Source: an uncultured Spirochaetota bacterium
GTDB taxonomy: Bacteria > Spirochaetota > Brevinematia > Brevinematales > JAOACQ01
DNA: 64,000 nucleotides
Direction: 5' to 3'
NCBI GenBank assembly: GCA_963783575.1
Contig: CAWAOD010000006.1
Coordinates: 95,758-159,757 of the forward strand
A program made the position numbers and the translations under genes. Positions 2,014-10,271 of the stretch are shown here, one piece after another (position 1 is the stretch's first letter; every line of letters starts with the position of its first letter). The notes below the pieces were generated by a model that saw only the letters and a program-made list of their open reading frames with translations, did no database searches and had not been told where the DNA came from.

Positions 2014-2066
2014 TTGTTTTGCCGTAAAGCCACGGCATATGGCTTTATTCCTTTCTTTCTGTGGCG

Positions 2067-3792
2067 TTGTCTGTCGAAAAATCCGAAAATATGATATAAT
2101 AGTTAGTTGCAAAATTAAAGAGGGGAAAGACAATGGCGAGATATAAGAGAGGAAATCTAGACCAGGGAGAATTGTTAGCCATCAATTTGCAGGAACAATT
2201 CGATGAATACAGCCGTGAAGTCCTTCTAAAAAAGTTTGTGGCGAAATACATTGATATACAAAGGTTTGATAAATATTATTCCAATGATGAAACAGGGCGG
2301 AAAGGGAAACATCCTCAAGATGTTATATCTGCGATTCTCTATGGTTATTTGCAAGGAATCCATTCCAGCCGCAAGGTAGAAAATCTTCTCAGAACCCACA
2401 TAGGATTTATGTATGTATCAAACCGTCTTAGCATAGATCATTCAAAGCTTTGCGATTTTAAAATCCAGTTTGATGACGAAATTACAAATCTGTTTGCGAC
2501 AATTCTTTTTTTATTAAATAACATAGGAGAGATTGATTGGGATGTAGTTGTGGGGGACGGAACGAAAATCAAAGCCAATGCATCAAAGTCAAAGACGATG
2601 ACCAGGGAAAGAGCCGACAAAGTGATGAGAACTTACCGCAAAATGGCAACCAAAGTAGTTAAAAGGAGTTTGGAGACAGATGAGAAACTAAATCGTGGTG
2701 AATTGGAAGAAGAAAAGTATATGGCTGAAAAAAAGCGTATAGAACGTCAGGAAAAGCTTTACAACAGAGTGATGGAACAGGTGGAAGTTTATCAAAAGAT
2801 GCTTGAAGAAGAAAGATTAAAAGAAGGAGACAAAACCATTACAGGCAAAGATCATTATAATTTAACCGATCCCGACAGCTCTCTTACATTGGGGCCTGAC
2901 AAGAGCGGATATATTCAGGGATATAATATAAGAATGATGATCAGTAACAATGACATAATACTAAGCTGTGAAAACGATAAATTGAATGAGAAATACAGTG
3001 CGAAACCCATGATCGAGGAAGTGGAAAAGCTTAAAGAGGAATTGGGGGTAAAGCAGGAAAGTAAGTACCTGCTGGATTCGGGATTTCAAAATATGACAGA
3101 CATTCTGGAAATGGAAGAAAAAGGATTGGATTGCTATATTGATATAAAAGAGAGAGATTTTGGGAAAGAGGTACAAAAGAGAAAGAATTTTGAAATCATA
3201 AAAGGTGATAACAGAGAGTATCGGTTAAAGTGCTGTGGTGGATTAAATACCAAAGGATACATTGATGATAAAAGAGGCAAAATCCACTTTTTCTATAATC
3301 GATCACAATGTAAGGAATGTGAAAATAATAAGGAATGTTATACGAACATAAATCCCAGCAAAAACCAAAAGACTGTAAATTTCAATCTGTTTGAGTTAGA
3401 GAACAGAAAGGAAATCGACAGTTATCTTAATAAATTGAGAAGTGATGAAGGGCAAAAGATATACAGCAAGAGAATTGGAAAGGAACACAATTTTGCCAAC
3501 CTTAAAACGCAGAAAGATTTTTCTCAAACCTATTATCGTGGAAAAGAAAAAGTAGAAATGGATTGGCTCTGGAATTCCACTTCACATAATTTGGGAAAAT
3601 ATTTTCAGGCTGTAATATGCAAAGGATTGAGTATATGAGAATGATATAAAATGGTATAGGAGTGTAATTATGTAATTTAAGCTATAATAAATTGTATATG
3701 AGATTAATTTTCGGATATCTTAGAAATCAAATGTGATATCCGAATGTTATAGAAAATCGCTTTTTCTCTTTTTATAGTTTTTCGACAGACAA
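2067..3792 (+). mobile_element. IS1182-family insertion sequence with 15-bp perfect TIRs and 4-bp target duplication
   Basis: TIRs ttgtctgtcgaaaaa (2067-2081) and tttttcgacagacaa (3778-3792); GGCG direct repeat at 2063-2066 and 3793-3796. Confidence 0.9.
2133..3638 (+). CDS. IS1182-family DDE transposase
   Basis: LYGY-x-GIHSSRKVE, DGTKIKANASK, TDPDS, GYN, LLDSGF, YSKR-x3-EHNFANLK motifs. Confidence 0.9.
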   Translation: MARYKRGNLDQGELLAINLQEQFDEYSREVLLKKFVAKYIDIQRFDKYYSNDETGRKGKHPQDVISAILYGYLQGIHSSRKVENLLRTHIGFMYVSNRLSIDHSKLCDFKIQFDDEITNLFATILFLLNNIGEIDWDVVVGDGTKIKANASKSKTMTRERADKVMRTYRKMATKVVKRSLETDEKLNRGELEEEKYMAEKKRIERQEKLYNRVMEQVEVYQKMLEEERLKEGDKTITGKDHYNLTDPDSSLTLGPDKSGYIQGYNIRMMISNNDIILSCENDKLNEKYSAKPMIEEVEKLKEELGVKQESKYLLDSGFQNMTDILEMEEKGLDCYIDIKERDFGKEVQKRKNFEIIKGDNREYRLKCCGGLNTKGYIDDKRGKIHFFYNRSQCKECENNKECYTNINPSKNQKTVNFNLFELENRKEIDSYLNKLRSDEGQKIYSKRIGKEHNFANLKTQKDFSQTYYRGKEKVEMDWLWNSTSHNLGKYFQAVICKGLSI

Positions 3793-4095
3793 GGCGAACA
3801 GAAAGAAAGGAATCGAAAGAAAGATTCGCCCCTTCGCATTAACACCATTTCATGTCAAGCTATCTGTTTATTCCGAAGTGTTGTTATTCCGATCTGATTT
3901 AACATTCTTTTTTATTAAAGAGCCTCACTTTGCAGTCCTGCTACGTTCGGGTCGCAGCCGTCCTGGCTGCGAAATACGAACGTATCGATTTATTATTAAA
4001 GGGGAATAACAACAATTTTAGTACTGAGCATTTTCAATGTAATAACTAAGGCTCAATCAGAAATGGCGTTAATGCTGCGGGGGCAATTAAGCAAT

Positions 4096-4354
4096 CTTCG
4101 GTCACTGAGTAGCGTCTTGTTTATGGTCACTTCGATACGGGCTGAAGCCCTACTCAGTGACCGAAGTATTTCTTAAAAGATGGAGCTAAACGCGTATCGA
4201 AGTGACTGTCATGACAGCTTTTATAGTACATTTTAGAAATATAAACAAAGCCCTCTTCGCTCCCCGAGTGATCGCGATAGCGATCGTATCGAGGGGGTGT
4301 CATGACGATCGCCTCGATACAATTTTTGCTTCGCAAAAATCACTCGGCGACCGA
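4096..4354. repeat. Cluster of nested REP-like palindromes
   Basis: Perfect IR cttcggtcactgagtag 4096-4112/4150-4166, interleaved with IR gtcacttcgatacg 4126-4139/4193-4206; two further related units at 4257-4354. Confidence 0.75.
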
Positions 4355-4648
4355 AGCCAGTTCTATACAAATCAATACTGATAACTTGACTTGTTTTATC
4401 ATAAGCATTATGATTTCCCGGCATATGACATGTATTTGTGGACAACTTTTTGTGGTAATGCGTTTACTTGGGCGATGGTGGGCTGGAGGTTTTTTTGGGG
4501 GGGTGTAACTTCGCCTCCGCCCAGTGGCTGGTAAAAAGGTTGAAAATATTGGATAATATTTATTAATTGAACATAAAAAATCATCAATTTTAAAGCAAAA
4601 AAATATTACCTATTAGTTAATGTTTTTTTAAATAGGTGGATATGAAAT

Positions 4649-5653
4649 ATGGATTCCAGTTTACATGAAAGATTATACAATAATGAAATTAACAAAGAAA
4701 ATTTAACATCGCTATTAAAAGAATACAACCCAGATCAACACATTGCATTTATCGGATCAGGAATTAACACAACAATAAACGATATCCCTAACTATAGTCT
4801 ACTTTTTAATAAATTATGTAATGGAATATATAATGAAAAAGATAATAATAAAATTAATCCAGATTCTTTTTCTAGATTATATGAAAACTATAATGATATA
4901 GAAAATTTTGATAGGAAGGTTTTTGATATAATAACTCCTAAAAATACAAGTGGTTCTATGACAAGTATTGATATTACCCGAGCTTTTAATTGTTTTGTAA
5001 CAACAAATTATCATGAACCAATAGAAGAAGCTTTTAAAAAGAAGCAGATTATAGCACAAGAATCACCCGCAGAGTTGAAATTATTTTATTTTTCTTTTCC
5101 AACAACATTAGGGCAGCCTTCAAAACACACATTAACATATTTACATGGTAATTCGGCTATTGGGTTCTGTATTTTAAGACAAAAAGATTATGAATACTTT
5201 TATCCTTCTTTATATCAAAAACATCTTGGAGTATATGTACTTGAAAATAGTTTATTTGATATTTTCACAAAAAAAAGTGTAGTTTTTTTAGGTTGTTCAT
5301 TAGAAAAACATATAAAAGAGTATTTGAATTATCTTATTAATAAAAAGATAAATCAAATGAATCAAAAAATAAACAGGGAGAAAAAATTAATTTGTAATAC
5401 CCATTATTGGATTAATAATGACATCGATATCAATCAATATTTAAGAGGAATTCCTAAACAAGAAAAAGAAAATAAATATAAAGAATATGAAAATAAATAT
5501 TTTGAAAATTTTGCAAGAATAAAAATTAAACCAATAATTTATACAGGATATCATATTTTCATAGAAGATATATGTAAATTGTTAATTCATAAGGGTGAAG
5601 ATAAAAAGACACTCAAATTTGAGCAAAGCTTTGATCCAACAAAAGGAGTTTGA
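4649..5653 (+). CDS. SIR2-like (SIR2_2) domain protein, putative NADase defence effector
   Basis: AFIGSG-x-N...IPNY, VTTNYH, YLHG and VVFLGCSL motifs; very AT-rich. Confidence 0.8.
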   Translation: MDSSLHERLYNNEINKENLTSLLKEYNPDQHIAFIGSGINTTINDIPNYSLLFNKLCNGIYNEKDNNKINPDSFSRLYENYNDIENFDRKVFDIITPKNTSGSMTSIDITRAFNCFVTTNYHEPIEEAFKKKQIIAQESPAELKLFYFSFPTTLGQPSKHTLTYLHGNSAIGFCILRQKDYEYFYPSLYQKHLGVYVLENSLFDIFTKKSVVFLGCSLEKHIKEYLNYLINKKINQMNQKINREKKLICNTHYWINNDIDINQYLRGIPKQEKENKYKEYENKYFENFARIKIKPIIYTGYHIFIEDICKLLIHKGEDKKTLKFEQSFDPTKGV

Positions 5654-5659
5654 TAATAT

Positions 5660-8600
5660 ATGAGTTATTATGAATTATTAAATGATCTAGAGAAACTTAT
5701 TATAGAATTTAGTAATGATAATGCTGCTAAAATTTTAATGCTTATTCAACAAGATAATGCACTAGAAACTGAATTATTTAGAAGACTAAAATCTTGTTTG
5801 TGGTTTATGTGGTTAAGAGATTCTGGATTCTTTAAACCTGAAAACATTAAATATAATTCCAAAGGTTATGCTATTTATTGGGATATTGTCGATTATCTTG
5901 AAAAAGTCTCGGAGCAGGTTTCCCAAAATCCCGAATACGGAAAAGAACTAATCGACATTATTAAAAATACGGTTGAATTTTCCATTGATAAAAAAAAGAT
6001 AATAAACAATTTTTATATCTGGCAGTATTTTGTAAAGATCATTAAAAATATCCCAAACCCTATTATTGTGGAAAATTTCCCAATGGAAAACCGTGAAAAG
6101 GATGGAAATATTTCATACGGTTTCCGGACATGGTTATTTACTTTAACTGAAGCAACAAGAGATAGTGATTTTATTATTAATGATATAGCGGATTTGCTTC
6201 TGGGCAAATTCCTTGAGGATGACAACACCATAAAATATGCGGAAGCTATTATGGAATTGATGACATGGATTCAGCCGAAAAATTATAGGAGTTCAATAAC
6301 CGGAAGGGATGATGCTGTGATGAAGTGGAATTCATACTGGATATTGGAAGCCTTTAAAAAGAACCGCATCAACATCGGAAAGAAATGTTCCAAAGACTCA
6401 ATTGTGGATATTGCCGGGAAACTTGAAAAAGCACTGGAGTATGAACAGAGTTTTTACGATAGAATTATTGAAACAGAGCAGGGAATATACCGGTTAAAAG
6501 TTAGCAGGGTTAAAGATGAAAAAATCGGGGAAAATGAGATCGGATTTATTGAAAATACTTTTGAAAGTGATCTTAGCCGATATGCGTCTAAACAAATTGA
6601 AGGAATTAATTTAAAGGAAGACCCCTGGCCGCTTTACCATATCGAGCCTGAAACAGGGCTGCAAAATTTCCGTATGATCGCAAAGGATAAAGAAACATTT
6701 ATTCTAAAATTGAAGGATAATTTATCCTCTTTCATTAAAAACCTGGAAACGGGAGAATTTGAAAAGGAAACCGGCCAAATGTTCGATGGATTATTTGAAG
6801 ATTATTCAAATCTCTGGGCAAAATCCCTATCCGGAATAGATGAATTAAACACAAATAATGCCAAAAATGTCATATCAATTATTTTACGAGATATTCTTAT
6901 CGCAAAGTGTGAAGTTGACATTGAGATAGTAAGAGAAATTTTGAACATATTTTTAACTGATAAATACCGTTTCCCGATATTCCGAAAGTTTGTACTATTT
7001 TTCGTCCATAAGCAATGGGCTTATCAGGAATTATTATATAAATTCTTTGATATTACATCAAATCCCCTGGAAAAAGCGAATTATAATGTTGAACTATATG
7101 ATATCCTGCATAACAACTATGATAATTTTACATTTGAATTTAAAGAGCATATTAAAAAACAGATTTTCAAAATCCCTGATTATTTTAATAAAAAGGAAGC
7201 TTCATATATAGCTTATTGGCAATACCGATGGCTTTCGCCTCTTTCCGGTCATCCCGAATTTTCAGAAGCATATTCAAAAGCCAGAAAGGAAGCGGAAGTT
7301 GAAGAAGACAGGCCATACGAGCCGGAAAGGTCTATGAAAATCAGCGCAGGTTTTGTAGGTCATGTATCGTCTTTGTCAAAAGAACAGATACTTCAAATGC
7401 CTATTTCTGAATTAATAAAATACATAAATGAATTTAAAGAAGTAGATTCAAACAAAAATCCTTTTGATAATAAACCGGACAGAGAAGGTTTGGCCAGAGT
7501 GCTGCAGTCCGCTGTTGCGGAAAATCCCTCAAAGTTCTGTAATGAAATTTCAGTTTTTTTACAAGTTGATTATTACTATCTTTATCATATCTTCAGGGGC
7601 TTTATTGATGCATGGAGATCGAAAAAAGAACTGGTTTGGGGTAATTTATTTGATTTTATCATTAAATACATGGAAAAAGGTGGGGATGAAATTCTTAAAG
7701 AGGCTTTGAAGGCCCAGGGTGATGATTTCGGGAATGGAAGATATATTTGGATGGTTGAAGTTATTGTTGATTTAATAGAGGAAGGTTCCAGGGATGATCA
7801 TAGGGCTTTTGATCATGCTCTATTTTAATCAGGTTGATCAAATATATGAATTAATCCACACACTCCTGAAAGGCGAAAAACAGCCCAACACTCAAAGGGA
7901 TGCCATCACTTACGCGTTAAATACAACATTGGGGAAAACAATTGAGTCTTTTATTATATATTCTTTGAGACGTGCAAGAGTAACAGGGGTAAGAATTGAA
8001 AATTGGGGCAAAACAAAGTATGATAGGTATTTTGATATCGGCGTCGAAGCCTATATCTGGTTCGGCCGCTTTTTGGCGAATATAAACTATCTGGATGAAG
8101 ATTTTACCCGTGAAAAGATCAAAACTTTAGCTGAAAACCGGATAGACGAATATAGCTGGCGGAATTTCATGGGCGGATATTTATCCGGGTCGCAGGTTTA
8201 TAAAGATATATATTCCTATATGAGGCCGAATTATTATAAAGCCGTGGAGTATGGCAAGTTTGATGAAAATGTTGATTCAAGGCTTGTCAATCATATCGCC
8301 ATTGGTTATCTATACGGTTACGATCAATTGGATACTAACAATCTGGATGGAAATCCCAGCCTCTTTTACAAGATGCTCAATGAAGCTGTGAGAGTGGAGA
8401 AAAAGAAAAGATGGGAAGAAACGGTCAATTTTTTCTGGTCTTTGTCGGGAAGGACTATCCATAAAAAAGATATTGAAAATAATGATGAAATAGAAGAAGA
8501 AACAAAAAGTAAAATAATAGATTTCTGGAGATGGACTTATGAAAATCGAGAATATATCAAAGAAATGCTGGATAATGAAGATTATCATTTATTTCTGGGC

Positions 8601-8954
8601 AGCATTTCTCAATTAGTAATTGTACTGAATAAAATTGATGATAACTCATCAGATTGGATTGAGTTATGCGCCCCTTATATAAATATTCACCAAAATTCCT
8701 CATTTTTTATTGAATATTTAACAAAGTTTGAAGACGATGAAAGCATCAAACATATTGGAAATATATATCTGAAAATTCTTGAATATTTTATACCTACTTT
8801 CGGGGAAGAAGATATAAAGCAGACTATTGAAAAATTATATAAGCTTGGCGTAAAAGATGCCGAAGTAAAAAATGTCGCTGATAATATTTGTGAAATTTAT
8901 GGCCGCCGTGGGATTCATATTTTGAAAGATTTGTGGGATAAGTATAATACTTAA
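5660..8954 (+). CDS. Large (~1090 aa) predicted alpha-helical protein, partner of the SIR2 gene; split by a frameshift near 7800-7825
   Basis: Overlapping ORFs 5660..7828 and 7794..8954; starts 6 nt after the SIR2 stop; no catalytic motif recognised. Confidence 0.7.
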
Positions 8955-9003
8955 TAATTATGAATTGAATCACTTTATTTTTGAATAGATTTATTATTAC
9001 CTG

Positions 9004-9219
9004 TCAGTTGACAAATAAGCTATATTTGAAAAAACTAAGGTTCCTTTGCTCCCAGATAACAACCGGAACGTTTTTATCCATCAGTTTTTCCATTAGTCCG
9101 GGACTGATTGAACCTGTCTCAATGGCGGTGGATGAAGCTACATTTGTGATTATCATTTTTTCCAGATTTTCAGGGTCTTTCAGGTTGGGATTGGATAGGA
9201 TTAAAGGTATATTTTTCAT
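9004..9219 (-). CDS. Small protein resembling Fic antitoxins
   Basis: 71 aa containing SSTAIETG, similar to the Fic-inhibitory (S/T)xxxE(G/N) motif. Confidence 0.4.
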   Translation of the reverse strand: MKNIPLILSNPNLKDPENLEKMIITNVASSTAIETGSISPGLMEKLMDKNVPVVIWEQRNLSFFKYSLFVN

Positions 9220-9302
9220 ACATTAATTATAAACAGCTATTGTAATAAAGTCAATCGACATAGAGAAACAAATTTAGGGGGAAGCTCATCCAATGCCCGA
9301 TA

Positions 9303-9647
9303 ATTTTGCTCCCCGCAGCAGGAGCGCCATTTCTGATTGAGCCTTCATTTGACTAAAAGAAATCTCAGTATAACAATCGTTGTTATTCAAAATTAACATG
9401 AACTGAACAAGTTTAAGGGTTTCAGACAGGAGGTCTGAAACCGAGGAATCAGTCTAGGACGGACTGATGACGAGGCGATTACTAAAAGACATGTTTAAGA
9501 AAACCCGAATAACAACACCTCAGTACTTAAAGACAGCTTAACATGAAATGGTGTTCATGCGTAGGGGTGGCTTTTTTCTTTTGCTCCTTTTCTTTTTTGG
9601 CCAGTTCAAAAAAGAAAAGGAGAGAGCCCCATTGCCGCTTCCGGCAA
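9303..9647 (+). repeat. Copy B of the ~340-nt structured non-coding element (intact)
   Basis: Inverted homologue of copy A; stem gttgttattc 9379-9388/gaataacaac 9507-9516; GGA-loop hairpins 9418-9442 and 9448-9468; mirror repeat/hairpin 9568-9622. Confidence 0.85.
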
Positions 9648-10271
9648 TCAATAAATTTTATATTTTTTAAGAAACTGATCGGCAGTTTTACGTGTTTTAG
9701 GGCTTCCGCTTTCAAGACCTTTTTTCACGAAACGTGCGATTTCTTCCTTATTTAGAGCCTTAGGATATAATTTTTCAAAAGCCTCAATAACATAAGCCTT
9801 GATAAGGTTCTTACGGCTTTGAGTTTGATTTGTTTTTTCAATTTCCAGCAGTGCCCCGATTATATCCGGTATAAGCCCGGGCTTAAATTCTGCGATAACT
9901 GCGGCGTTTATTGCTATATGTGACGCCACCATAACCGAACCGCAGTCAAGCTGCGCGAAGTAATCCTGGAAATCCCTTTCGAATTTATTTTCCCGGTCAA
10001 TTTTTGTAAGATTTGCTATGACATAAAGCGCCGCGTATTGCGAAAAACCATTATCGCTTTTAAGATAATCCATAAAAATTTCCCATTTGCCGTATAAAAG
10101 TTCCGGGTTCTTAATACTTAATTCAATTAAAAGCGGGATGAACAGTTCCCTCTCTTCCATTTTCTTCTTTTCCGGGGATATCCCGTCAATTGCTTCCATT
10201 AAATAGCTTCCATCGGAAATAGCCTTTTTATAAATAACAGGATCTATTTTAACCTCTCTGCTTCCGCTCAT
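9648..10271 (-). CDS. Hypothetical HEAT/ARM-like helical protein
   Basis: 207-aa ORF with GGAGG RBS; helical repeat pattern. Confidence 0.65.
   Translation of the reverse strand: MSGSREVKIDPVIYKKAISDGSYLMEAIDGISPEKKKMEERELFIPLLIELSIKNPELLYGKWEIFMDYLKSDNGFSQYAALYVIANLTKIDRENKFERDFQDYFAQLDCGSVMVASHIAINAAVIAEFKPGLIPDIIGALLEIEKTNQTQSRKNLIKAYVIEAFEKLYPKALNKEEIARFVKKGLESGSPKTRKTADQFLKKYKIY

Follow-up and report, generated by a model that had tools for sequence, protein, structure and literature searches.

A 64,000-nt stretch of contig CAWAOD010000006.1 (positions 95,758 to 159,757; assembly GCA_963783575.1) from an uncultured Spirochaetota bacterium of the order Brevinematales, hereafter called the window, contains a SIR2 locus that is bracketed by two copies, A and B, of a structured repeat in inverted orientation. 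Plain coordinates are window positions, G000 denotes the genome of the window and other G numbers denote other genomes searched. Copy B is intact (9303-9648, plus strand) and ends at the stop codon of an open reading frame (ORF) on the minus strand (9648-10271). Copy A lies on the minus strand and is interrupted by an insertion sequence (IS). Its 5' and central part (3797-4092) carries the closing stem, the basal stem, two GGA hairpins, the first of which has an AGGAC loop (3953-3971), and the 5' half of a predicted 3' pseudoknot/triplex module; its 3' part (2017-2066) carries the pseudoknot loop, the purine arm and the terminal hairpin, and ends 3 nt from the stop codon of ORF 319-2013. When A is read from 4092 to 3797 and on from 2066 to 2017, it is homologous to B over the full length (68.9% identity over 296 nt, E 2e-17, blastn), as proposed in an initial annotation made from the letters of the stretch, and all the stems and loops named there were found. 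That annotation had the elements begin at the flanking stop codons. They do adjoin these codons (2013 and 9648), but with their 3' ends, the 5' ends being turned towards the cargo.

The DNA between the copies amounts to 5.2 kb with a GC content of 0.32. Its genes (4649-8954, plus strand) form a Dsr1-like locus of three ORFs: a SIR2-domain ORF (4649-5653) followed by two in-frame stops, and ORFs 5660-7828 and 7794-8954, which match consecutive parts of the Dsr1 profile and are split by a frameshift near 7800. No relative of this cargo was confirmed among 57 metagenome candidates. The IS in copy A (2067-3792, plus strand, transposase 2133-3638) has 15-bp terminal inverted repeats, is flanked by a 4-bp direct repeat (2063-2066/3793-3796) and sits inside the loop of the 3' hairpin; its transposase was assigned to the IS1182 type at 222 bits, below the 270-bit cut-off. 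The genome has seven full-length copies of this IS, six of them situated at the 3'-hairpin loop of the repeat. G000 also harbors about 34 copies of another IS1182-like element (494 aa) and about 15 of an IS21-like element, both of which, together with an IS110-like element, interrupt copies of the repeat. Immediately 5' of copy A lies a cluster of REP-like palindromes (4093-4370); about 15 related palindromes occur in the genome and several stand just 5' of other copies. On the other side of copy A, ORF 319-2013 (564 aa) has no Pfam or NCBIfam match and is conserved at 42-64% in all five relatives searched.

Copy B folds better on the plus strand (z = -6.0) than on the minus strand (z = -3.9), and B-plus and A-minus are therefore taken as sense. 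In B, a closing stem (9311-9334 with 9545-9567) encloses a basal stem (9379-9388 with 9507-9516) and two GGA-loop hairpins (9418-9442 and 9448-9468) that resemble the core of the TwoAYGGAY RNA motif; a predicted H-type pseudoknot with a triple helix (9568-9622) and a terminal hairpin (9631-9648) follow. Covariation was assessed on 30 copies from three genomes, with a structure drawn from copy B and the consensus. Over five helices and 44 pairs, 87.7% of the positions are paired as compared with 71.6% after shuffling, and covariation reaches 0.44, a value that none of 500 shuffles equalled, against 0.185, the shuffle ignoring the kinship of the copies. Thirty-five pairs changed on both sides, and controls in which the structure was slid along the alignment gave only 41-53% pairing. 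The covarying parts are the closing stem, the basal stem and the two GGA-loop hairpins. The view that the element is under selection for its fold is supported.

The central hairpins differ in their stems and keep GGA at both positions in 29 of the 30 aligned copies. The suggestion that these are CsrA-type loops also holds, CsrA binding itself being a prediction, and G000 has one csrA gene. Each copy might be first of all an RNA that sequesters CsrA and owes its stability to the 3' triple helix; its retention beside defence loci would link their expression, or phage infection, with Csr control, and spread would be a secondary matter. The constancy of the GGA loops, the csrA gene and the better fold of the plus strand agree with such a role, and CsrA binding has been proposed for TwoAYGGAY (PMC4333381). 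However, copy number ranges from none found to more than 50 within one family, many copies are truncated or hit by an IS, and no promoter above chance points into A or B, where nothing convincing speaks for an intrinsic terminator or promoter role either; we consider a primarily regulatory function quite improbable. The CsrB/RsmZ sponge RNAs likewise present GGA in hairpin loops in cells with CsrA, but here there are two sites per unit and the units are multicopy and dispersed.

The 3' end of the repeat has an architecture of its own. Ahead of a long pyrimidine/purine hairpin stands a pyrimidine tract mirroring the hairpin's 5' arm. The parallel match between this tract and the purine arm extends over 7-12 nt in 65 sense-strand rows, which were chosen partly by composition, as against 2-8 nt for readings of the opposite strand. 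An unbiased test was obtained by a scan of viral and metagenome contigs in which two positions of the stem were not prescribed. This yielded at least 109 distinct hairpins; among the matches listed, 83 have a scorable tract and 26 do not, and the parallel match is present in all 83 (GA with CT in 44/44, AG with TC in 39/39). In a gap-free alignment of 38 of the listed hairpins, selected for a 6-nt loop, the parallel register covaries at 0.505 (0/500 shuffles); an antiparallel alternative pairing of the third strand, with a covariation of 0.017, was rejected. In addition, the five bases that precede the tract form pairs with the hairpin loop (85% paired, double changes in four of the five pairs). 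The 3' end is accordingly predicted to be an H-type pseudoknot whose first loop would form U.A-U and C.G-C triples. In copy B, the pseudoknot pairing would involve 9568-9571 with 9600-9603 and the hairpin 9584-9598 with 9608-9622, and the predicted third strand (9572-9582) matches the purine arm (9608-9618) in parallel at 11/11 positions. In telomerase-type pseudoknots and ENE triple helices, a pyrimidine loop likewise lies in the major groove of a U-A-rich stem and forms U.A-U and C.G-C triples; the difference is that the module predicted here stands at the end of a dispersed bacterial repeat. In many G000 copies (e.g., 2017-2045), the loop of the terminal hairpin is complementary to the bases that directly precede this hairpin, and a second pseudoknot may form there.

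The initial annotation considered an inverted pair acting on the cargo of the SIR2 locus, but the repeat is not a two-copy device of this locus. A profile search of G000 gave 59 matches at 40 loci; removal of split duplicates and addition of diverged or 5'-only copies led to 41 curated copies of the folded, protein-free repeat. There are 57 matches in G001, despite a completeness of 57%, and 32 anchors in G011. With a sequence-only model, matches occur in five of the 35 genomes of the order (G000, G001, G011, G004 and G022), those of G004 and G022 being mainly the 3' hairpin, and none was found in the other 30. Named records with the same 3' hairpin are Spirochaetota assemblies, Brevinematales among them. 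A blastn search of plasmids gave no match, nor did an exact scan of a genome contig collection for the 5' motif. Inserted ISs apart, the copies examined have no ORF of their own. The nearest kin of A are copies on other contigs (80-82%), as is the case for B (80%), so that the two partners did not arise by local duplication.

In agreement with the initial annotation, no named family is recognised by Rfam at its cut-off on A or B: searches at gathering and E-value thresholds returned only tRNAs and chance matches, and the TwoAYGGAY motif, RF01731 (PMC2864571), is not listed for either copy at E<=10. The element is nevertheless not without known kin. Three sister copies score 37.2, 35.3 and 27.5 bits with RF01731, under its 43-bit gathering cut-off; among 151 genomes of the phylum, matches occur in five, above the cut-off in two. 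In metagenomes, three matches in two of 40 loci reach the cut-off, and at one locus (L233) 17 nt separate the end of a 56-bit match from the same 3' hairpin. An extended form of TwoAYGGAY, as described in the text of a September 2026 preprint, has extra hairpins, a 3' pseudoknot, wide variation in copy number and divergent doublets with a median spacing of 249 bp, and is largely confined to Pseudomonadota (bioRxiv 10.64898/2026.09.22.753630). Compared with that description, the present repeat has the two sequential GGA-loop hairpins on a common basal stem, the elongated stem, the extra hairpins, the 3' pseudoknot, a multicopy state varying strongly among relatives, divergent doublets and REP-like neighbours. 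It differs by its occurrence in Spirochaetota, by loops that are mostly AGGAN or ANGGAN (AGGAC and AGGAG in A and B, strict AYGGAY only in some copies), and by doublets that lie 1-10 kb apart with genes inside, far above the reported spacing. The family of A and B is thus a TwoAYGGAY-like extended repeat that is not filed as a member of RF01731. Its kind is already known; what is added here is a polarity towards defence genes, described below, and the predicted triple-helix pseudoknot. Neither was found for TwoAYGGAY-like repeats in the literature searched, and the main text of the preprint, as far as available, makes no mention of cargo, restriction, RAYT or triplex. Twenty-seven metagenome loci and two loci of G139 lie beyond the reach of model R1, and kinship to distant elements therefore rests on shared modules rather than on whole-length homology.

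Several other candidates were rejected. Bacillaceae-1 (RF01690) scores at best 21.2 bits, below its 35-bit threshold. A miniature inverted-repeat transposable element (MITE) is at odds with single copies that have unlike ends and with pair ends at which no duplication is evident. HEARO/omega RNA, group I/II introns and other Rfam families gave no Rfam match, and no nuclease or reverse transcriptase ORF is associated. GGAM was dropped as a lead, GGAM-1 being a guanidine-riboswitch name.

The arrangement of the copies relative to each other and to their neighbours is distinctive. In G000, neighbour pairs within 10 kb, a cut chosen after the data were seen, are divergent in eight cases, tandem in two and convergent in none (p 3.5e-4); the uncurated list has 8 divergent, 4 tandem and 2 convergent pairs, both convergent ones being an element's own stem arm. 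Within 11 kb, the G001 pairs comprise 8 divergent, 6 tandem and 0 convergent ones (p 0.007). The divergent pairs enclose 1-10 kb. Recognisable defence genes are present in five of the eight G000 pairs: two Dsr1 loci, a type I restriction-modification system with HerA and RhuM-Fic, a type II methylase with an AAA ATPase, and a HIT/radical-SAM/PDC-M30A cluster; one of the remaining pairs holds a RAYT-like gene only, and two hold unannotated low-GC ORFs. In five of the eight G001 pairs examined, the cargo is HNH, SoFic with IIG restriction-modification, an OLD-like ATPase or type I systems, and the other three contain an IS with beta-lactamase-like fragments, a PTS permease or an unknown ORF. Two G011 pairs enclose a type I-E CRISPR operon and a type I system. 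The initial annotation had envisaged that many copies unrelated to cargo would make the bracketing coincidental; the opposite is seen, with divergent pairs recurring around accessory or defence genes.

The polarity is also visible in the flanks of single copies. The 5' flank has a GC content of 0.335 against 0.378 for the 3' flank and is the lower of the two in 31 of 39 G000 copies (p 4e-4). N6_Mtase loci were counted after merging split matches and taking three identical G011 hits as one. A 5' end is no more than 4 kb away in 2/5, 3/3 and 6/11 cases in G000, G001 and G011, or 11/19 in all, and a 3' end in 0/19; about 4-10% would be expected per locus. Hand counts place N6_N4_Mtase on the 5' side in 6/10 cases (one in an N6_Mtase island, one under the cut-off) and SIR2_2 in 2/5; for control glycosyltransferases, they give 0/41 on the 5' side and 1/41 on the 3' side. 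In six G011 singletons examined, the first or second ORF at the 5' end is a restriction-modification gene, a kinase or another low-GC ORF, with host-like genes beyond.

Such one-sided facing could arise if the repeat moved alone and carried nothing, inserting or surviving at the edges of existing islands in one orientation, either by target choice or because the other orientation disturbs transcription of the host or the island. This we rate as unlikely, if still a serious contender. It would account for elements that are lineage-specific next to diverse cargo, for partner copies that are unrelated and for the many islands with one element or none, and IS1182, IS21-like and IS110-like elements likewise accumulate at these sites. 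Low GC alone, however, leaves the 5'-only facing unexplained, cargo transcription runs towards the element in some copies and away from it in others, glycosyltransferase genes, which are often accessory, show no link, and distant copies have upstream flanks in common.

We tentatively favour, at somewhat less than an even chance, a mobile element that is non-autonomous, structured and fixed at its 3' end, and open at its 5' end, where DNA from outside would be captured or docked. Three observations fit such an element: the sequence upstream of the 5' motif is common to groups of copies over 100-190 nt, some copies are hybrids with one subfamily at the start and another further on, and G022 contains a unit of about 490 nt with the 3' module at both ends, facing outward (L147:1700-2210 and 4020-4510). 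The pseudoknot with its predicted triple helix would be the fixed outer end, and the element would move as a single strand of RNA or DNA with an enzyme supplied in trans. Lone copies would then give one-ended units of cargo plus element and divergent pairs two-ended ones, and recombination within the repeats could swap cassettes between sites. If the repeat is transcribed, CsrA binding at the two GGA loops would be a side effect.

Hybrid copies could also be expected if the dispersed repeats simply served as homology arms. Incoming DNA with a divergent pair at its ends would then replace a resident cassette by homologous recombination, and defence cassettes would circulate among fixed sites with no need of a transposase of their own. 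Most copies, however, are only 65-85% identical over 350 nt. Repeats of such a length and identity are poor substrates for RecA. One-ended cases, moreover, are common in G011. Although two G000 pairs hold different Dsr1 genes and divergent doublets are also the enriched unit in Pseudomonas according to the preprint text (bioRxiv 10.64898/2026.09.22.753630), we regard this exchange by homology as improbable.

A mobile element with an open 5' end has to be set against a number of observations that do not favour it. No mobilising gene accompanies the repeat, neighbour clustering having returned ISs only. The link to RAYT is weak: two Y1/RAYT-like matches and a weak third lie inside G000 pairs, two of them with palindromes of their own, and no match to the element occurs in G005, a genome with five Y1 genes. 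No target duplication is evident at the outer ends of the eight G000 pairs and no empty site was found. Partner copies are not each other's closest relatives, and some 3' flanks are also common to several copies. All G011 anchors have one lineage-specific motif in common, so that their cargo did not evidently arrive with donor-type ends. The pair statistics weaken to p 0.10 at 5 kb in G000 and show no enrichment in G011 (2 divergent, 3 tandem, 0 convergent; p 0.39), and G000, G001 and G011 are kin rather than independent genomes. Eight of the 19 N6_Mtase loci, including a large G011 island, have no element nearby. The two-ended units of G022 flank housekeeping genes, the TwoAYGGAY copies of G139 lie among housekeeping genes, and the single, weak methylase match in G139 is 18 kb from the nearest copy. 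An empty-site look-up in five relatives was uninformative: the left flank gene has a different neighbour there and no element match, and the right flank gene was not found. Overall, the proposal of the initial annotation that the repeat is a non-autonomous mobile element is likely to be right, but the mobilisation or inversion of the cargo that went with it is not borne out by an empty site, an inverted allele or an enzyme.

Comparison with known systems points to partial likenesses. In REPIN/RAYT systems, two inverted structured units also make up a larger one, and RAYT-like genes occur inside three G000 pairs; the units measure about 350 nt here as compared with REPs of about 25 nt, and two of the RAYT-like genes look broken and have their own palindromes. 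These two (L090:1159-1602 and L108:11412-11765, both in divergent pairs) encode RAYT-like Y1 proteins from genes that are 85% identical, one frameshifted and the other truncated. One-ended capture by IS91/ISCR, integron mobilisation units and MITE composites share with the element proposed here a fixed end opposite a capturing one or inverted non-coding pairs around cargo; however, no Y2 transposase, terminal inverted repeats or target duplication were seen here.

TwoAYGGAY repeats are widespread, and the available text of the preprint leaves their mobility and purpose open (bioRxiv 10.64898/2026.09.22.753630). It is conceivable, though rather doubtful, that repeats of this type are the ends of an undescribed gene-capture system, in which the triple-helix pseudoknot would serve as the outer mark for an enzyme, the 5' end would recruit incoming DNA, and divergent pairs would be cassettes open to exchange, moving restriction-modification, Dsr1 and entire CRISPR-Cas operons in rotation through the chromosome. 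The strict polarity to defence genes offers a testable handle on how defence islands assemble at particular sites. The covarying predicted triple-helix pseudoknot is a structure to probe and a tag for family searches across distant bacteria, the loci with the 3' hairpin spanning 26-70% GC. Even if the repeat were to travel alone, it would still mark candidate defence genes, such as the low-GC ORFs in two divergent G000 pairs (L107:2862-5629 and L111:2561-4802) that have no Pfam or PADLOC match.

Some minor observations concern the cargo and more remote relatives. A second Dsr1 locus, interrupted by an IS, lies within another divergent pair (L108); another cargo, C16, was rejected as a Dsr1 relative (E 0.12). 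Methylase-containing ORFs of about 1200 aa at L157:1850-5470 and L148:3623-7150 have an internal Y1_Tnp-like match. G139 (L130-L145) has near-identical, rod-shaped TwoAYGGAY copies (32 matches, 17 above the cut-off) with long inverted arms and a MITE-like appearance, and the 3' module is not present in these rods at the 11 loci viewed. Finally, an Rfam match to the Bp1_684 sRNA overlaps the end of the pseudoknot/triplex hairpin at one metagenome locus (L228:3021-3128). Bp1_684, listed as validated by RT-PCR (PMC3521395), may represent the tail of a repeat of this type, which hints weakly at transcription of some relatives.

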